Origin: Candidatus Sumerlaeia bacterium
GTDB taxonomy: Bacteria; Sumerlaeota; Sumerlaeia; SLMS01
Reading direction: 5' to 3'
DNA length: 64,000 nucleotides
Assembly: GCA_038208905.1 (NCBI GenBank)
Contig: JBBQYG010000001.1
Location: 7,789-71,788, forward strand
Under the pieces are notes generated by a model, which was not told the DNA's origin, searched no databases, and was given only the letters and a program-made list of their open reading frames with translations. Both the position numbers and the translations under genes were made by a program. Every line of letters begins with the position of its first letter. Positions within the stretch are counted from its first letter, which is position 1. Below are positions 6,593 through 52,745 of the stretch, in pieces.

Positions 6593-6918
6593 TCTGGGGA
6601 TTCTCTGTTGGGGGTGGGGGTTGGGCCTGGGGGGGGCCGGTCACTTTTCCAGTTGATGTTCTAACTAAGTCTCTCTCGTACTTGCCCGGGCGAACAAACA
6701 GTCTCTATCATGGAATACCCTGAGAGCAAGTGGAACAATCCGGGCGGTGCAATCTGGTACCCTCTTTTTGCTTCAAAAGGCTCGTTCCGAAGGACTTGCA
6801 CGACACTTGCGCCCGATCCGAGGTCTAAAACTCTCTTGGCGGGGTACTCGCGGCCCGAATCACATCGCGGGTTCCACGCCAGAGGCCCTCAAGATTCAAC
6901 AACGATCTCGGTAAATTC

Positions 6919-8661
6919 ATGGAATTCAGGTCTCAGCCCCTCTCCCAACTCGCCCACTACCCCGCCGTTCGGCTGGTGGGTCTGGGATTTTTCCTTGGTC
7001 TGATCGGAATCATTTCTGCGCGCCTTGTTCTCTTGACGACCCTTGGCCACGACGACGCGGCGGCGCAGGCCCAAGAAAATCTCTATCAGCAACGACGCCT
7101 GACATATCCTCGCGGAAACATTTCGGATCGCAATGGAAATGTTCTTGCGACGAATAAGCGGTGCTACGCGATCCGGTTTTCGCCTTATGGTCAATCCGAT
7201 GCGGTGGCGGGCGAGGCCCTTGATCGCCTTGCCGCGATCCTGGGCTCTCCGTCCCAAGAGGAGAGGGAGAAGATCCTCGCAGCGCGGCCGCGCTGGACAC
7301 GGCACCTGATCGCGTCGGGGCTGGGGCAATCCGATGTGATCCCCTTTATCGAGCGACCCCGCGACTATCCCGGAGTGCGCATCCAGGAAGAGTATGCCCG
7401 CGTGTATGAGCAGCCGGTGGACTTTGCGTTGATCGTCGGTTTCGTGGGGCGCATCCAGCCCGGCCAGGAAGCAGAGTTCCCCCGCCCCCGCTACCTCCCC
7501 GACGACATGGTGGGGCGCAGCGGGATCGAGCGTCAGTATCAGGACCGCCTGGCCGGATCGCCGGGCCGCGAGCGCCTCCAGCGGGACGCGCGCGGCCGCA
7601 GCTTGGCGGAGCCCGACGTTCTGGAGCCAAGTCATCCCGGAGAGGACCTGACCCTCGCACTCGACGCCCGTATTCAGACCGTGGCGATGGACCTCCTCAA
7701 GGGACACAAGGGGAGCATCGTCCTGATGGACGTGGCGACGGGCGAGGTCCACGCGATGGCTTCGCGGCCAACCTTCGACGCGACGAATCCCGGAGCCATG
7801 GAACTGGACGGCGAGCCCGCCGGTTTCGTGAATCTGGCAATGCGCGGCCTGTATCCACCGGGATCGACGCTCAAGGTGGTCTCCGCAATGGCGGCGCTGA
7901 AGGAAGGCGTCTCGCCCGCGGAGAGAATCGACTGCCGCGGAAGCTTTCTGGTCGATGGATGGAGCCGCCCCTTCTGGTGCGCCCACCGCGAGGGCCACGG
8001 CCCCATGGGGATGGCCGACTCGCTCAAGGCGAGCTGCAACGTGTACTACTACACGATGGCCAAGCGGTTGGGGCCGCGCCCGCTGTTCGAGGCGGGCCGC
8101 GAATTCGGCCTGGGCCGTGCCACGGGGATCGACCTTCCCGGCGAGGCGGGGGGCCAGCTCAGCACGATGCCGAATCCCGCTTCGGGAGAGACGACGAACT
8201 TGTATATCGGGCAGGGCTCCATGCTGGCCACTCCCCTGCAAGTTGCGCGGATGTATGCGGGGCTTGCCAACGGCGGCGTGCTGCCGGTGCCCCGCGTCGT
8301 CATCGGGGGATCGGCGCCAGCGACGGGCGGCGAACGGCTGCCGATGACCGAGGCGCAGCGTGCCGAGATAAACCGCGGTCTATACGGCGCCGTGAACGAG
8401 CAGGGCGGCACCGCCGCCAAGGCGGGGATACCGCGCGCGTGGGGAGTGTGCGGGAAAACCGGCACGGCGGAGAACGCCACCGGGGGCGTGGATGCGTGGT
8501 TTGCCGGATTCTTCCCGCAGGAGAATCCACGGTTCGCCTTTGCCGTTCACGTGGAAGAAGCGGACGGCCACGGCGGCGACGTGGCAGGGCCTATCGCGCG
8601 TGAACTGATTCGCGCGGTGCTTGCGCCGACGGACCAGAAGAGCGTGGCCGCGCTGCCCTAG
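6919..8661 (+). CDS. mrdA: Penicillin-binding protein 2 (peptidoglycan D,D-transpeptidase)
   Basis: 580 aa. N-terminal TM anchor. PBP dimerisation region. Transpeptidase motifs SxxK (GSTLKVV), SxN (SCN) and KTG (KTGTA). Confidence 0.85.
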   Translation: MEFRSQPLSQLAHYPAVRLVGLGFFLGLIGIISARLVLLTTLGHDDAAAQAQENLYQQRRLTYPRGNISDRNGNVLATNKRCYAIRFSPYGQSDAVAGEALDRLAAILGSPSQEEREKILAARPRWTRHLIASGLGQSDVIPFIERPRDYPGVRIQEEYARVYEQPVDFALIVGFVGRIQPGQEAEFPRPRYLPDDMVGRSGIERQYQDRLAGSPGRERLQRDARGRSLAEPDVLEPSHPGEDLTLALDARIQTVAMDLLKGHKGSIVLMDVATGEVHAMASRPTFDATNPGAMELDGEPAGFVNLAMRGLYPPGSTLKVVSAMAALKEGVSPAERIDCRGSFLVDGWSRPFWCAHREGHGPMGMADSLKASCNVYYYTMAKRLGPRPLFEAGREFGLGRATGIDLPGEAGGQLSTMPNPASGETTNLYIGQGSMLATPLQVARMYAGLANGGVLPVPRVVIGGSAPATGGERLPMTEAQRAEINRGLYGAVNEQGGTAAKAGIPRAWGVCGKTGTAENATGGVDAWFAGFFPQENPRFAFAVHVEEADGHGGDVAGPIARELIRAVLAPTDQKSVAALP

Positions 8662-8763
8662 TGTCGCATCGACCCAGATTCCAGCGATGCAGACTGCATG
8701 CAAAGTCAATTCGGTCCATCACGTCCATAAGGTCACAGCTCTCGTTCCTGGGTAGGGGGCACG

Positions 8764-11340: not shown

Positions 11341-11735
11341 CAGCTCCCCGATCCGTGATGTTGCACGTCAGTGACTTCGTGCAGGTAGTCGTGGAGCCTG
11401 CTCATCAACGCGCGGTACTGCGCCGGGGTCAGATCAACCTCGGTGCCGCCCACCCCCAGGTCGATCATCGCATCCTTGGGGACAGACTTTAGGAATCCCT
11501 CGCGAAACACGACGCGGACGCGGTCGCCCTGCATGGTGATGACGACGTCGCTCTCCTCCGTGGGGCCAAACTTGATCGAGTGATCCTCCGCAAGTTCCAG
11601 CAGGATGCCATCTTTCAATGGATCGAAGGGTGCCGGGGTAGCGGCGGGGGTGGCTGGTGCAGGGGGTTTTTCCTCCCGCGATCCGCAGCCCGCAATGGCG
11701 AGAGCGGCGATAAAGAAAACAGTGCGTGGCGACAT
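11340..11735 (-). CDS. lipoprotein of unknown function, first gene of the ABC-2 permease operon
   Basis: 131 aa. Signal peptide with lipobox (FFIAALAIAGCGS). Pro/Ala/Thr linker. His-containing C-terminal tail (VQHHGSGS). Confidence 0.55.
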   Translation of the reverse strand: MSPRTVFFIAALAIAGCGSREEKPPAPATPAATPAPFDPLKDGILLELAEDHSIKFGPTEESDVVITMQGDRVRVVFREGFLKSVPKDAMIDLGVGGTEVDLTPAQYRALMSRLHDYLHEVTDVQHHGSGS

Positions 11736-11833
11736 GAACGGTTACTTCCCAAGGCGTGGAGTCACCGGGATCCCGGCGCGCCTGTGAGGTGGATTGATTG
11801 GCGGATGCCCGCCACCGGCGCAACCCCAAGCAT

Positions 11834-11880
11834 CGAATTGTAGTATTTGGTCACAAATGTATCATTGGTTACAAATTGGC
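11834..11880. promoter_or_regulatory. AT-rich direct-repeat element in the divergent promoter region; candidate metal-repressor operator
   Basis: The only AT-rich stretch in a roughly 220-bp GC-rich intergenic region. It reads gaattgtagtatttggtcacaaatgtatcattggttacaaattgg, i.e. two 12-mers TTGGTCACAAAT / TTGGTTACAAAT 6 nt apart, about 80 nt upstream of the binding-protein gene ATG. Confidence 0.3.
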
Positions 11881-11958
11881 TTGCCATCCCCCCGCCAATG
11901 GCCCCACACACATCGCGTCGCCGGTGGAACGGTGGCAGACTCCACCGAGGCCCGGTCC

Positions 11959-12903
11959 ATGCACTTTCCTCCCGCCCTTCGCGCACTGATCTGCTTCCTC
12001 GCCCTCGCGGCGTTGCTGGGGGCCGCACCGCTCCGCGCGGAGTATGCGGGTGCCTATCCCTTCAAGGCCGTGGCGACCACCGGAATGGTCGGCGACATGG
12101 TCCGCCGGATCGCGGGCGAGCGCGCCACCGTGACCGACCTGATGTCGGCGGGGATCGACCCCCACCTCTACAAGCCCGGCCGCGGCGACCTGATCGCGCT
12201 GAAGGGCGCGGACATCGTCTTCTACAGCGGACTGAAGCTGGAGGGCCAGATGTCGGAAATTCTCGCCGGCCTCTCCACCAGCAAGCCCAGCATCGCCATC
12301 GCCGAGGCGATCCCATCCGCCAGGCTCCTGGGTGACGACCATCATCACGACCCCCATGTTTGGATGGACGCGGCCCTGTGGCTCCTGGCGGCGGAGAAGG
12401 CCCATGCGGGGCTCGTCACCTTCGACCCGAAGGGGAAGACGATCTACGAGGCGAATATGGAAATCCTGAAGAAGGATATGGCGGCCCTCGATACGCGTGC
12501 CCGCGAAGCCATTGCTTCGATCCCCAAGGAGGCCCGCGTGCTCGTCACGGCACACGACGCCTTCAGCTATTTCGGACGCGCCTATGACATCGAAGTGATG
12601 GGCATCCAGGGCATCTCCACCGAGTCCGAGGCGGGCCTGCAAGACATCAACCGCATGGTGGAACTGCTCGTGTCGCGCAAGATTCCCGCGGTCTTTGTGG
12701 AGAGCAGCGTCAGCGAAAAGAACGTCCGCGCCCTCGTCGAAGGCGCCGCCGCCCGCGGCCACAAAGTCGCCATCGGCGGCTCGCTCTTCTCCGACGCCAT
12801 GGGCAAGGCCGGCACGCCGCAGGGCACGTACATCGGCATGATTGATCACAACGTGGAGACGATTGTGAAAGCGTTGAAGGGGAAGGAAGGGAATGGGGAA
12901 TAG
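11959..12903 (+). CDS. Metal (Zn/Mn) ABC transporter substrate-binding protein, cluster A-I (ZnuA/TroA/MntC family)
   Basis: ATG at 11959 follows an in-frame upstream extension. Signal peptide (ALICFLALAALLGAAPLRA). The DPHLYKP and DPHVWMD motifs are typical of the family. His-rich loop GDDHHHDPH as in ZnuA. Confidence 0.85.
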   Translation: MHFPPALRALICFLALAALLGAAPLRAEYAGAYPFKAVATTGMVGDMVRRIAGERATVTDLMSAGIDPHLYKPGRGDLIALKGADIVFYSGLKLEGQMSEILAGLSTSKPSIAIAEAIPSARLLGDDHHHDPHVWMDAALWLLAAEKAHAGLVTFDPKGKTIYEANMEILKKDMAALDTRAREAIASIPKEARVLVTAHDAFSYFGRAYDIEVMGIQGISTESEAGLQDINRMVELLVSRKIPAVFVESSVSEKNVRALVEGAAARGHKVAIGGSLFSDAMGKAGTPQGTYIGMIDHNVETIVKALKGKEGNGE

Positions 12904-13015
12904 GGAGTGGGGAATGGAGTTCCAACCCGCTCCCCTTCGCACTCCCTGTTAGGGATTCCTCGACATTCTCGCCACATCAGTTCCCTATTCCCCATTCCCC
13001 GTTCCCCATTCCCCC
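12887..13015. repeat. Inverted array of heptamer repeats (GGGGAAT)n ... (ATTCCCC)n spanning the stop of the binding-protein gene and the intergenic region
   Basis: Left arm aagggaatggggaatagggagtggggaatgg (about 12887-12916). Right arm tccctattccccattccccgttccccattcccc (about 12982-13015). They are reverse complements built from GGGGAAT units, about 65 nt apart. Confidence 0.6.
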
Positions 13016-13021
13016 TCTCCC

Positions 13022-13834
13022 ATGCCCCTCCCCGGAATCCGCCCCAGCATCCCCGCCACACCCCGCGACGACCACGCGGAGGATGCGCCGTTGTCTATAC
13101 ACGACCTGACAGTGGCGTATCGGCGGAAGCCGGTGCTGTGGGACGTGGACCTGGACCTGCCGGAGAAGCGCCTGATCGCGCTGGTGGGGCCGAATGGCGC
13201 GGGGAAGAGCACGCTGCTGAAGGCCGCGCTGGGGCTGGTGCCCGCCGTGTCGGGCGATGTGAAGGTCTATGGGCGCGACTACAAGGAGCAGCGCAGGCTG
13301 GTGGCCTATGTGCCGCAGCGGGAGTCTGTGGATTGGGACTTCCCCGTGAACGCACTGGATGTTGTGGCGATGGGCCGCTATCGGCGCATCGGATGGCTGA
13401 GGCCCGTGGGTCGCGCGGACCGCGAGGCGGCGATGGTGGCGCTGGGCAAGGTGGGGATGGCGGACTATGCGCAGCGCCAGATCAGCCAGCTTTCCGGGGG
13501 CCAGCAGCAGCGGGTGTTCCTCGCCCGCGCCCTGGCTCAGGAGGCGCGCCTGTACCTGATGGACGAGCCCTTCGCGGGCGTGGATGCCGCGACGGAGAAG
13601 GCTATCGTGGCGCTGCTCGACGACCTGCGCGAGCAGGGAAACACGGTGCTTGTTGTACATCATGATATACAGACCGTGCCCGCGTATTTCGACTATGTGG
13701 TGATGCTGAACATGCGCGTGGTGGCCCATGGTCCCGTTGAGGACGTGTTCACGGAGGAGAATCTGCGCAAGACATACGGCGGCAAGCTGACGCTGCTGAG
13801 CGCCGCCGCCGAGGCGCTGGCGGGCAGGCGATGA
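13022..13834 (+). CDS. Metal ABC transporter ATP-binding protein (ZnuC/TroB family)
   Basis: Walker A GPNGAGKST. ABC signature LSGGQQQRV. Walker B LYLMDEP. H-loop. 4-nt overlap with the downstream permease gene. Confidence 0.9.
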   Translation: MPLPGIRPSIPATPRDDHAEDAPLSIHDLTVAYRRKPVLWDVDLDLPEKRLIALVGPNGAGKSTLLKAALGLVPAVSGDVKVYGRDYKEQRRLVAYVPQRESVDWDFPVNALDVVAMGRYRRIGWLRPVGRADREAAMVALGKVGMADYAQRQISQLSGGQQQRVFLARALAQEARLYLMDEPFAGVDAATEKAIVALLDDLREQGNTVLVVHHDIQTVPAYFDYVVMLNMRVVAHGPVEDVFTEENLRKTYGGKLTLLSAAAEALAGRR

Positions 13835-15201
13835 TTTCGAGCCTGGCCGCCGCCAGCCACGCGGAAATCGTTCCTCCGATGGAGGCGCTGTGGCGGGTGC
13901 TGTCGCTGCAGGACTACAATACGCGGGTCGTCGTGATTGGCACAACGCTGCTGGGCCTCGCATCGGGGCTGGCGGGGGTGTTCCTGCTGCTGAGGAAGCG
14001 CTCGCTCCTAAGCGACGTGGTCAGTCACTCCGCCCTTCCCGGAATTGGCATCGCGTTCATCGCGATGACGATGATGGGCGGCGGCGGCAAGAACACCCTT
14101 GGCCTGCTGCTTGGCGCCACGGCGACCGCGCTGCTGGGCATTGTCGCGGTCGGCGCCATCCGTCGGTTCACGCGCCTGAAGGACGATGCGGCGCTGGCGA
14201 TCGTGCTGGGGACGTTCTTCTCCGCGGGGATCGCGCTGACCGGCGTGGCGGCGCGCATGCCTGGCGCGGGAGCGTCGGGGCTGGAGAGCTGGATCTACGG
14301 CAAGACCGCGTCGATGCTCTTCTCCGACGCGCTGCTGATCGGAATCACCGGCCTGCTGGTGACGCTGGGGACGGTGCTGCTCTTCAAGGAGCTGGCGCTG
14401 CTATGCTTCGACGAGGACTTCGCCGCGACGCAGGGTTGGCCCGTGGGGCTGCTGGACATGTTGCTGATGGGCGCGACGGTGGCCGTCACGGTGATCGGCT
14501 TGCAGGCGGTGGGGCTGATCCTGGTGGTGGCGCTCCTGATCATACCGCCGGCGGCGGCGCGGCTGTGGACGCATCGGCTGCGCCCGCTTGCCGCGATCTC
14601 GGCGGTGATCGGCGGGCTCGCCTGCCTGGTGGGGAGCGCCCTCAGCGCGCTGATGGAGAATCTCCCCGCGGGCGCGATCATCGTGCTCTCCGCGGCGGCG
14701 CTGTTCTGCGTCAGCCTCGTCTTCGGCACAGAGGGCGGGATGCTCCACCGAGGCCTCGGCGCGTGGACGCTGCGCAAGCGCGTCGGTCGCCAGCATCTGC
14801 TCCGCGCGCTGGCGGAGCTTGCAGAGCAATCCGGCAAGGACGTCGCCTCCTTCTCCACGATCCGTCACCGGCGATCGTGGCACACCGCGACGGTGCGGGG
14901 ACTCCTCGCAAGCGCCATGAAGGATGGGCTGGTGGAGCGCGTGGATGCGCGCCATTGGCGCCTGACGGAATCCGGAGTGGCGGAAGCCCGCCGCGTTGTC
15001 CGCAATCACCGCCTCTGGGAATTGTTCCTGATCACCCACGCCGACATCGCGCCCTCCCACGTGGATCGCGACGCCGACATGATCGAGCACATCCTGGACG
15101 AGCGAATGATCGCGCAGCTTGAGGGATTGATGGCCGGGGAGAATCGCGGCCACGTGCCGCCGAGCCCGCACGCATTGCGTCCGGCGGAGGGCACGGCCTG
15201 A
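13831..15201 (+). CDS. Metal ABC transporter permease (ABC-3/ZnuB-TroC family) fused to a C-terminal DtxR-family metal-dependent repressor domain (YtgC-YtgR-like)
   Basis: 456 aa. The N-terminal roughly 300 aa are a typical ABC-3 permease with 8-9 TM segments. The C-terminal roughly 140 aa read LLRALAELAEQSGKDVASFSTIRHRRSWHTATVRGLLASAMKDGLVERVDARHWRLTESGVAEARRVVRNHRLWELFLITHADIAPSHVDRDADMIEHIL. This matches a DtxR/MntR winged-HTH plus the RRHRLxExFL dimerisation region. Confidence 0.85.
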   Translation: MISSLAAASHAEIVPPMEALWRVLSLQDYNTRVVVIGTTLLGLASGLAGVFLLLRKRSLLSDVVSHSALPGIGIAFIAMTMMGGGGKNTLGLLLGATATALLGIVAVGAIRRFTRLKDDAALAIVLGTFFSAGIALTGVAARMPGAGASGLESWIYGKTASMLFSDALLIGITGLLVTLGTVLLFKELALLCFDEDFAATQGWPVGLLDMLLMGATVAVTVIGLQAVGLILVVALLIIPPAAARLWTHRLRPLAAISAVIGGLACLVGSALSALMENLPAGAIIVLSAAALFCVSLVFGTEGGMLHRGLGAWTLRKRVGRQHLLRALAELAEQSGKDVASFSTIRHRRSWHTATVRGLLASAMKDGLVERVDARHWRLTESGVAEARRVVRNHRLWELFLITHADIAPSHVDRDADMIEHILDERMIAQLEGLMAGENRGHVPPSPHALRPAEGTA

Positions 15202-16505
15202 TGTGGACGACCTTCGACACCGCGATCGTGGCCACGGGCGCCATCGCGGCGATGTCCTGCGCGCTGCCGGGATGCTTCCTTCTGCTGAGGCGCAGCAGCA
15301 TGATGGGCGACGCGATCAGCCACACGGTGCTGCCGGGAATTGCGGCGGCATACCTGCTGACGGGATCGCGGGACAGCCTGCCGATGTTCGTCGGCGCCAT
15401 CGTGGTGGGCGTCCTGACGGCGTTGCTGATTCAGGCGGTGCAGCGCGGCGGCCAGGTGGAGGAAGGCGCCGCGATGGGCGTGGTGTTCACGTCGCTCTTT
15501 GCCCTCGGCCTCGTGATGATCCGTCGCGCGGCGGACCATGTGGACCTCGACCCGAGCTGCGTCCTCTATGGCGCGCTGGAACTGGCGCCGCTGGATACCG
15601 TCTCCGTCGGCGGCTGGGACATTCCCCGCGCAGCAATTTCGAGCGGCGCGCTCCTGCTGATCAACGCGGTCTTCATCGGCATCTTCTACAAGGAGCTGAA
15701 GCTCTGTGCGTTCGACCCGGGCTATGCGCGGACACAGGGCATTCGCGTCGGCGCGCTGAATCTGGCGCTGATGACGCTGATCGCCGCGACCACCGTGGCC
15801 GCGTTCGAGAGCGTCGGCAGCATCCTGGTGATCGCGATGCTCATCGTGCCCGCCGCCACCGCCTACCTGATGACGGATCGGCTGCCGATCATGCTGGTGG
15901 GGAGTCTCGTCTTCGGCGCGCTCTCCGCCGCGCTCGGCCACGGCATGGTGGTGTGGATGGTCGATGGATTGGGACTGCCCGACACCAGCTCCGCGGGGAT
16001 GACCGGCGTGGCGGCGGGGATCCTCTTCGTCGCGATGGCGCTGGGTTCCCCGAAGTATGGTATCCTGATGCGCGCGGCCCGTTCGCTCCAGCTCGCCCTC
16101 GGCATCGCGCGCGACGATGTGCTCGCCTACCTGTACCGCCACGGCGAACTTGATCCACTGGGCACCCGCCCGCGCCCCACGGCAAGCAACCTCCGCGAGG
16201 CCATCCGTGCCCGCGTCGCGGTCAGCGCGGCGATCTGGCAACTGAGGAATCGGCGCCTGCTGGCGGCGGAGGGCGGCGGAATCGCCCTCACCCCCGCTGG
16301 CCGCGACACGGCCCGGGGCCTTGTCCGGTCGCATCGGCTGTGGGAGACGTATCTGGTGGAGAAATTGGGGCTCCGACCCGATCACGTGCATTCCACGGCG
16401 GAAGTTCTGGAGCACATCACCGACCGCACCATGCGCGAAAGCCTGAGCCGCGAGACCGGCGACGCCCCCCGGGACCCCCACCGCTCCAGCATCCCCCCAG
16501 AGTGA
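15201..16505 (+). CDS. Second metal ABC transporter permease fused to a C-terminal DtxR-family domain
   Basis: 434 aa. Permease core followed by ...SNLREAIRARVAVSAAIWQLRNRRLLAAEGGGIALTPAGRDTARGLVRSHRLWETYLVEKLGLRPDHVHSTAEVLEHITD, which is DtxR-like. ATG overlaps the upstream TGA (TGATG). Confidence 0.85.
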   Translation: MWTTFDTAIVATGAIAAMSCALPGCFLLLRRSSMMGDAISHTVLPGIAAAYLLTGSRDSLPMFVGAIVVGVLTALLIQAVQRGGQVEEGAAMGVVFTSLFALGLVMIRRAADHVDLDPSCVLYGALELAPLDTVSVGGWDIPRAAISSGALLLINAVFIGIFYKELKLCAFDPGYARTQGIRVGALNLALMTLIAATTVAAFESVGSILVIAMLIVPAATAYLMTDRLPIMLVGSLVFGALSAALGHGMVVWMVDGLGLPDTSSAGMTGVAAGILFVAMALGSPKYGILMRAARSLQLALGIARDDVLAYLYRHGELDPLGTRPRPTASNLREAIRARVAVSAAIWQLRNRRLLAAEGGGIALTPAGRDTARGLVRSHRLWETYLVEKLGLRPDHVHSTAEVLEHITDRTMRESLSRETGDAPRDPHRSSIPPE

Positions 16506-16587
16506 CCCCCCGCAATCGTTGCTGACACGCGGGCGGGCGTCGGCCTACACTTTCCACCAGATTACCCGCGAAGGAGCCGCGCAGCCC

Positions 16588-16809
16588 ATGTTACTCTTAT
16601 CGGCAGGCCTATTCCCCGGGTTCTGGGAAATGATGATAGTCCTCGCGGTGGTCCTGCTTATCTTCGGGCCGCGCAACCTCCCCAAGCTGGGCGCCATGAT
16701 CGGCAAGACCATTGGCTCCTTCCGCGACGCCGCTACCAAGGGCGTGGACGAGGACGAGGAAACCCCGAAAGCGCCCGCATCAATCGACAGTCGCAAGGAA
16801 CCGAGGTAA
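16588..16809 (+). CDS. tatA: Twin-arginine translocase subunit TatA/E
   Basis: 73 aa from the ATG at 16588, with AAGGAG 12 nt upstream. Sequence MLLLSAGLFPGFWEMMIVLAVVLLIFGPRNLPKLGAMIGKTIGSFRDA carries the canonical TatA TM, hinge and amphipathic-helix signature. Confidence 0.85.
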   Translation: MLLLSAGLFPGFWEMMIVLAVVLLIFGPRNLPKLGAMIGKTIGSFRDAATKGVDEDEETPKAPASIDSRKEPR

Positions 16810-51578: not shown

Positions 51579-52745
51579 TCAGGGCTCGGTATCCTGGGCT
51601 GCTTTGTAGGCCTGCCGCATGTGGTGGGGCTCCTCGGGGATCGTGTATTTCAGGCTACCCTCCGCAATCATGGGGCTCAATTGATTCTCCACCAAGTATG
51701 TCTGATTCCGCCCAAGAATTCGTGCGATTTCCTCGGCCCTGAGTGGCCTCCATTCACATAGCTCGATGATGGCGGCCCGAAGCTTTTCTTTGCGGGCGCT
51801 CTTGCCCAACCCTTCCACTTTCAGTAGAATCGCCGGGGGGATAGCCCTTAGATTTTTTGGCAAGCTGCGCAGCCTATCGCCTATTGGGCCCCACTCCTCC
51901 ATCAGCGAGCCCTCGTCCTCCACTTCGAGCCCCTCGACCTCACTAGGGTTCGTGCCGACCTCACGAGGTTTCTGCCCGACCTCACTAGGTTTTGCGGGGA
52001 CCTCCTCAGATCTTGCGGCAGCGACCTGCATAGGTTTCGAAGACTCTTCGCCGCGCTCCTCCTGCAGGTAGGCAGATGGCACGTAGTAGGTGGCTGATCC
52101 TTTCCCTTTCTGGTCGAGAAGGCCTTCATCGCGAAGCCGACGCAGGGTTCTGCTGGCAGCGAGAGTCTCGGCTCCAGAAAGATTTCGAAGCGCCCGATTG
52201 CTGATTGCTCCCAGTTCACGGGCGTAGACGAGCGCCTGGCATTCATCTGCAGTTAGGTAGTGTTGCCGGAAACGGGCCAGCCACTCCACGTCCTCGCCGC
52301 CAAGCAGATGGTGGAAGAGGAGGATTAGACTGAAGGCATTGCCTGCTCGGTTGGATTCGAACGTCGGTGGCGCCAATCCGGCGTTCTGCATTTGCTCCCT
52401 CATAATGGAGATACCCCGCCCCTTGGTCTCGGCAAAGCGGGTTTCGTGAAGTACCTCGGCAATCCATGGATTTCTTGACACCGAGACGGGATCACCGAGG
52501 AGTTCCTCGGCCTTGAGCGAGTAGCCGGGATTCCTGAACTCCAGCCGGTTCCGATCCGATTGTACGGATGCTTCTGGCGCCACTTCAACGACGCCCACCG
52601 GCCGTGCAATGCCGGCGCGGCCGATGCTTGCCTGATAGCGGCAGGACCGATGAATCTCTGGATCAAGTCGTAGGCTTGATCTACGAGCCCGTTGTTGTCG
52701 TTCCAGCCGGCGTAGGCGAGGATGAACTGTCTGCGGCCGCCCCCC
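51579..52745 (-). pseudogene. Remnant of an AlbA_2/HATPase_c_4 ('RecG C-terminal-like') putative transcriptional-regulator gene. N-terminally truncated and frameshifted.
   Basis: Translation ...VQSDRNRLEFRNPGYSL...SRNPWIAEVLHETRFAETKGRGISIMREQMQNAGLAPPTFE matches HATPase_c_4. The C-terminal winged-HTH is intact. Upstream protein-like sequence (FILAYAGWNDNNGLVDQAYDLIQRFIG) sits in a different frame and is cut off by the neighbouring gene end at 52746. GC is about 55% against a roughly 68% background. A 13-nt unit cctagtgaggtcg is repeated 3 times. Confidence 0.5.

Follow-up and report, generated by a model that had tools for sequence, protein, structure and literature searches.

A conserved candidate DtxR-family operator upstream of a tro/ytg-type metal uptake operon with permease-fused DtxR-like domains in a Sumerlaeia bacterium

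The permease YtgC of Chlamydia carries a DtxR-like domain, YtgR, that is released by cleavage and acts on an operator at the ytgA promoter to repress ytgABCD. This repression is metal-dependent and autoregulatory, and orthologous permease-repressor fusions have already been reported in 11 phyla (PMC6504234, PMC5599777). For TroR, operators have been defined experimentally in T. denticola (TTTTGATATATCAAAA) and T. pallidum (CTTTGATGCATCAAAA) (PMC2628430), and the enterobacterial MntR box is AACATAGCnnnnGCTATGTT (PMC1698941). SloR of Streptococcus mutans binds tandem, partly degenerate dyads that extend over the -35 and -10 elements; binding is cooperative and involves two or three adjacent dyads, with one strong site nucleating the others (PMC12096823).

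We analysed a stretch of 64,000 nucleotides from a Candidatus Sumerlaeia bacterium, referred to here as the window, which contains a tro/ytg-type metal uptake operon made up of the following genes.

11959-12903, plus strand: TroA-like cluster A-I metal-binding protein with a signal peptide (Pfam ZnuA, 4.8e-75; ATG start)
13022-13834, plus strand: ABC transporter ATPase (Pfam ABC_tran, 1.3e-28)
13831-15201, plus strand: permease 1, fused to a DtxR-like domain (Pfam ABC-3, 3.6e-53; Fe_dep_repr_C, 6.3e-14)
15201-16505, plus strand: permease 2, fused to a second DtxR-like domain (Pfam ABC-3, 6.3e-46; Fe_dep_repr_C, 5.6e-19)

The binding-protein gene is preceded by a GAGG Shine-Dalgarno sequence at 11947-11950, and the closest solved structure to its product is TroA of T. 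pallidum (8e-73). Together with the ATPase, this cluster A-I protein gives the operon the composition of a YtgCR-type operon. A divergent operon on the minus strand, ending at 11735, encodes a small lipoprotein and then ABC-2 permeases, so that the gene context is as the original prediction described it. The divergent lipoprotein and ABC-2 genes were not conserved beside the operon in relatives, and the operator described below therefore belongs with the metal operon. A TatA-like gene (16519-16809) lies downstream of permease 2 in the window, and in three of the closer relatives, L081, L082 and L084, the gene next after permease 2 codes for a P-type (E1-E2) ATPase (6800-8740).

Both permeases consist of an ABC-3 domain and, C-terminal to it, a DtxR-like domain with a winged helix-turn-helix, the architecture of YtgCR-type fusions. 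In permease 1, the C-terminal 154 amino acids can be aligned with DtxR, IdeR, SloR and related chains from about residue 11 to residue 133. For the DtxR-like domain of permease 2, matches in the PDB reach down to 7e-15, and the alignments to DtxR chains span residues 8-133. Both fused domains are thus alignable across the helix-turn-helix and the metal and dimerisation region of the DtxR family. At the positions of DtxR His98 and Cys102 the permease 1 domain has Asp and Asp, and the permease 2 domain has His and Glu, like Mn-sensing relatives. More than 4,400 homologues of the permease-DtxR fusion are detectable; the first permease alone is fused in Verrucomicrobiota loci, and both permeases are fused in many Planctomycetota loci and in the four close relatives checked (L001, L081, L083 and L084).

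The 119-nt gap between the stop of the binding-protein gene (12903) and the start of the ATPase gene (13022) is filled by a hairpin, a long imperfect inverted repeat (12880-13031) of GGGGAAT heptamers and their complement ATTCCCC. Its arms are 18-33 nt long and its loop about 70 nt, and as RNA it folds with -35.5 kcal/mol (z = -3.0). No Rfam family scored above threshold on it; weak matches to microRNA models, which are hairpin-shaped, were the only ones found (12870-13030). The close relatives L081 and L084 lack such a gap between the two genes. A role in intercistronic processing or RNA stability is possible, as is an origin from a small repeat element inserted here.

Between the divergent operons, an AT-rich island stands in a GC-rich intergenic region (GC 0.36 in 11825-11874 against 0.6-0.8 in the surroundings). 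The island, its two near-identical 12-mers and its TAGTAT -10-like hexamer had all been pointed out in the original prediction, and all three are present. The sequence of 11830-11885 is gcatcgaattGTAGTATTTGGTCACAAATGTATCATTGGTTACAAATTGGcttgcc, and its features are listed here; class A refers to the motif of orthologous loci described further below.

11837-11865, minus strand: promoter-like ATGATA-17-TACAAT, a consensus match only, facing the lipoprotein/ABC-2 operon
11839-11857: 19-nt unit 1, TGTAGTATTTGGTCACAAA
11839-11855, no strand: distal, degenerate candidate operator site I, TGTAGTATTTGGTCACA, a weak copy of site II
11841-11846, plus strand: TAGTAT, alternative -10-like hexamer inside site I, read from the sequence
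11847-11858, plus strand: first 12-mer, TTGGTCACAAAT, comprising the right part of site I and the spacer and containing the -35-like TTGGTC
11858-11873, no strand: proximal candidate operator site II, TGTATCATTGGTTACA, a 16-bp imperfect dyad and the best class A match
11858-11876: 19-nt unit 2, TGTATCATTGGTTACAAAT
11865-11876, plus strand: second 12-mer, TTGGTTACAAAT, comprising the right half of site II and the -10-like TACAAA

The 12-mers lie 85-110 bp 5′ of the TroA-like binding-protein gene, are 18 bp apart from start to start and differ by one base (11/12 identity). No further copies with zero or one mismatch were found elsewhere in the 64-kb window. When the 56-nt island was dinucleotide-shuffled 3000 times, 6 shuffles contained a non-overlapping direct repeat matching at 11 of 12 positions; for the complete 223-nt GC-rich intergenic region the figure was 75 in 1000. 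Because of the latter frequency, the 12-mer repeat on its own is only moderately unusual. The repeat extends beyond the 12-mers, however, to form the two abutting 19-nt units.

Other symmetries in this region were considered and set aside. Two GC-rich inverted repeats of 8-9 bp bracket the island, ATTGGCGG/CCGCCAAT at 11797-11804 and 11892-11899, and CCACCGGCG/CGCCGGTGG at 11812-11820 and 11919-11927; their pairs cross instead of nesting, and we attribute them to chance. A 7-3-7 dyad, ACAAATG-tat-CATTGGT (11853-11869), was dropped because its centre is off the dyad conserved in relatives.

Upstream regions of the operon were compared among about 100 loci, comprising 80 genome loci, 5 loci of the closest proteins and 13 metagenome loci. 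The gene order of binding protein, ATPase, fused permease and second permease, the last with or without a fusion, was found in about 80 of them. Orthologous upstream regions carry one of two 16-bp palindromes. Class A, with the consensus TGTAGCCnnGGCTACA and AT flanks, was present no more than 300 bp from the binding-protein gene in 22 loci, and farther upstream in several more; class B, with the consensus TTTTGACnnGTCAAAA, was present within the same distance in 25 loci. Many sites of the family are perfect palindromes, for example TGTAGCCAAGGCTACA and TGTAACCGGGGTTACA, the latter being the site of the closest locus, that of a Sumerlaeota MAG (L001; permease identity 63%). When each class A locus was left out in turn, the best match of the whole 7-15-kb locus fell in the 340-bp upstream region in 20 of the 22, where about 3% would be expected by chance. 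Among metagenome loci outside the training set, all six with a class A or class B box had their best match just 5′ of the binding-protein gene; a seventh with a binding-protein gene (L100) had no box. Related genomes therefore carry an operator-like box at the orthologous position, a conservation characteristic of DtxR/MntR/TroR-family operators.

Footprinting against the 90%-cluster relative L086 was uninformative, as its intergenic region is 100% identical, and the closer relatives found in the metagenome scan were only the same organism, with the upstream part missing, and relatives of at most 54% identity. The island aligns without gaps to the corresponding regions of L081-L084, with GG.TACAAA invariant. 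L081, L082 and L083 each have three matrix matches at an exact 19-bp spacing, the strongest being proximal, and L084 and L092 have two matches with the 19-bp phasing. Two strong tandem sites 21 bp apart are present in L043 and L057.

Some further observations concern the distribution of boxes and regulators among these loci. Both box classes occur within one family, the Puniceicoccaceae (L012 versus L004 and L032). Two perfect TGTAGCACAAGCTACA sites 30 bp apart lie about 1.5 kb 5′ of the binding-protein gene in L058 (3556-3601), and a class A site lies between the binding-protein and ATPase genes in L002 (6020-6035). Such sites point to additional regulated genes, or to promoters within the operon, in some lineages. 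Bacteroidota loci L061-L062, L065-L068, L070, L074 and L079 contain, besides the permease fusion, a free-standing DtxR-like ORF about 300-700 bp 5′ of the binding-protein gene, detected by tblastn as matches of permease 2 residues about 340-434.

The class A matrix used to scan the window was built from the other loci only, with the window left out. In its 22-bp form, the best match in the 64 kb was at 11855-11876 (score 18.5) and the second best was at 11836-11857 (score 7.1), adjoining the first, so that the top two matches both lie in the island. A 16-bp core matrix without the AT flanks also ranked 11858-11873 first in the window, with a score of 12.9; its next match scored 9.5 and lies inside an ORF, at 51644. 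The core score of 12.9 was reached in 9 of 20,000 dinucleotide shuffles of the island. No class B box (TroR-type, TTTTGAYnnRTCAAAA) was found in the intergenic region, and the best class B score in the window was 7.0, at 12836 inside the binding-protein gene. As the window holds no further class A or 12-mer site, no regulon can be demonstrated from these 64 kb.

Site II reads TGTATCA tt GGTTACA, flanked by AAA and AAAT, and so has the interrupted palindrome typical of DtxR/MntR/TroR-family operators. It is imperfect: its halves TGTATCA and TGTAACC are symmetric at 5 of 7 positions, it agrees with the class A consensus at 11 of 14 positions, and its score of 12.9 compares with 15-22 for the best sites of the family. 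Its right half, GGTTACA, recurs unchanged in the site of L001. Site I is located exactly 19 bp 5′ of site II, and has a good left half and a right half, GGTCACA, shifted by one extra central T. The 16-mer at 11839-11854 (TGTAGTATTTGGTCAC) has a class A score of 3.5, ranking 27th among 63,985 positions, with a per-position probability of 0.0035 in island shuffles. As read from their sequence, the 19-nt units repeat a single TGTA-N8-TACA dyad unit head to tail. On the same reading, and given that several of the closer relatives also have a 19-bp phase in which the proximal site is the strong one, the direct repeat is made up of the right halves and A-rich/AAAT flanks of two tandem dyad operators. 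From these matches we consider that 11858-11873 is very probably a DtxR-family operator of the metal operon.

Promoter positions were inferred from hexamers matching at the consensus level. On the plus strand, a -35-like TTGGTC (11847-11852) is followed after 17 nt by a -10-like TACAAA (11870-11875); as read from the sequence, both are weak matches, at 3/6 and 4/6 of the consensus positions respectively. No -35 match is present in the window 16-18 nt 5′ of the alternative hexamer TAGTAT, and in L043 the first site holds TTGACG-17-TAGTAT at the corresponding position. In relatives the distal site contains TTGACC and the end of the proximal site supplies TACAAA; their spacing, TTGACC-19-TACAAA, exceeds the usual 16-18 nt. 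On the minus strand, ATGATA-17-TACAAT is the only sigma-70-like match in 11600-12100, and both operator copies overlap it. No Rfam family reached its gathering score in 11600-13100, so the leader has no recognisable riboswitch or further RNA element. The idea of a repressor box overlapping a promoter, put forward in the original prediction, agrees with the conserved operator motif in the island, and the overlap with a promoter is suggested by hexamers of consensus level only.

The same hexamers raise the question of whether the island could be a promoter only, with AT-rich -35, -10 and UP-like elements for one or both divergent operons and no repressor site, its likeness to the family motif stemming from shared promoter elements. 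This would fit the minus-strand promoter-like match, and also the inclusion of TACAAA in the matrix match, where it belongs to the segment most conserved relative to relatives. Yet the perfect palindromes seen at many sites of the family are not required of promoter elements, the left half TGTA is conserved as well, and the core matrix still ranks the site first in the window when the AT flanks are removed; moreover, the class B sites found at the same position in other loci are proven TroR operators. We consider a promoter without an operator very unlikely. Extremely improbable, in our judgement, is a reading implied by the original prediction, that the 12-mers are true direct repeats, bound in tandem for instance by an OmpR- or NarL-type response regulator. 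Their 11/12 identity at an 18-bp spacing, rare in island shuffles, is what such sites would produce, but tandem duplication of the dyad unit explains the repeat fully and the 12-mer occurs nowhere else in the window. What relatives keep is the 16-bp dyad with its 19-bp phase and not the 12-mer, and the proposal that the 12-mer direct repeat is itself the operator unit was therefore abandoned.

If the site is an operator, the protein that reads it has to be considered separately. The box could be a genuine DtxR/MntR-type operator whose reader is a free-standing regulator from an unlinked gene, the fused domains having a different task such as gating the transporter by sensing cytoplasmic metal. 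Such a division of labour would accommodate the Bacteroidota loci, which hold an extra free-standing DtxR-like ORF beside the operon in addition to the fusion, and the variability in the family alignment of the helix-turn-helix positions that follow the conserved Trp. No helix-turn-helix residues of permease 1 or 2 were found to track class A versus class B, nor does the presence of the second fusion track box class; with no covariation found between helix-turn-helix and box class, the comparison among loci provides no link from the box to the fused domains. Within the 64-kb window, however, no other DtxR-like or Fur-like gene was detectable, YtgR demonstrates that a fused domain can be a repressor, and both fused domains keep a full DNA-binding region alignable to DtxR. 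A free-standing regulator is accordingly an unlikely reader of the box, and the DtxR-like domains fused to the permeases are, by analogy with YtgR, its most plausible binders. The original prediction that the island is an operator for the fused DtxR domains is thus borne out for the site itself, which is the best class A match in the window at a conserved position, and its choice of binder follows from this analogy.

These considerations lead to a model in which the island is the promoter-operator of the metal uptake operon, autoregulated by the permease-fused DtxR-like domains. The region at 11837-11876 would contain two head-to-tail 19-bp units, each forming an AT-flanked dyad of 16-17 bp. 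A DtxR-family dimer loaded with metal (Mn, Fe or Zn) would bind the strong proximal site, and a second dimer would probably be recruited cooperatively to the weak distal site. The two sites together would cover TTGGTC and TACAAA (or TAGTAT) as well as the promoter-like match on the minus strand that faces the divergent operon, so that bound protein would keep RNA polymerase out and uptake would cease when metal is sufficient. The fused domains might act after proteolytic release, as in Chlamydia YtgR, or while tethered to the membrane. We regard the full model as probable and no more, given that box class and fused domains showed no covariation and that the analysis covered 64 kb of the genome.

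The difference in metal-ligand residues between the two DtxR-like domains raises a more speculative idea, to which we assign little probability. The two domains might pair as a heterodimer only upon assembly of the permease heterodimer, and so read the asymmetric half-sites TGTATCA and TGTAACC. The phased 19-bp array would then be read while the domains are membrane-tethered or after their release. Were this so, assembly of the transporter, or flux through it, would be coupled directly to transcription of its own operon, and the split between MntR-like and TroR-like boxes would reflect which domain dominates recognition.

With site II, the metal uptake operon gains a probable regulatory site with base-level coordinates in this genome, and the class A matrix offers a means of locating the remaining members of the regulon. 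More broadly, fusion operons in Sumerlaeota, Verrucomicrobiota, Planctomycetota and further phyla have either an MntR-like box or the experimentally defined TroR box, and both recognisable types are defined probes for whether fused domains outside Chlamydia are true repressors.

Among the described systems, the tandem arrangement recalls SloR, although the SloR elements are 18-bp units of 6-6-6 structure with 4-bp gaps, a 22-bp period and another sequence, compared with 16-bp units and a 19-bp period in the window. MntR is a DtxR-family protein, and class A and class B boxes are both of kinds read by DtxR-family proteins. The class A consensus aaTGTAGCCnnGGCTACAtt shares with the MntR box the TAGC-N4-GCTA core, an even dyad of 16-20 bp and AT flanks. 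By our count from the sequence, the window site itself matches the E. coli MntR consensus at about half of the specified positions, and its outer positions are TGTA/TACA in place of the CATA/TATG of the MntR box.

The class B boxes of the 25 orthologous loci match the published TroR operators, whereas the window carries a class A (MntR-like) box and not a TroR-type one. The locus resembles Treponema troABCD(R) in operon order, in its TroA-like binding protein and in having a 16-18-bp dyad, here at the putative promoter; Treponema TroR differs from the fusions in the window in being a separate gene at the end of the operon. With YtgCR of Chlamydia trachomatis the locus shares an ABC-3 permease fused at its C terminus to a DtxR-like domain, and with ytgABCD an operon of a binding protein, an ATPase and two permeases with a candidate operator in what appears to be its own promoter region. 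Most likely, therefore, this is the autoregulatory tro/ytg-type arrangement already known from Chlamydia YtgCR and Treponema TroR, and current understanding of metal regulation is unchanged. Two features are mildly new: orthologous operons are split between MntR-like and TroR-like boxes with no visible reason in the proteins, and, unlike in Chlamydia, where YtgC alone is fused, both permeases in the window carry a DtxR-like domain, as they also do in many Planctomycetota loci.
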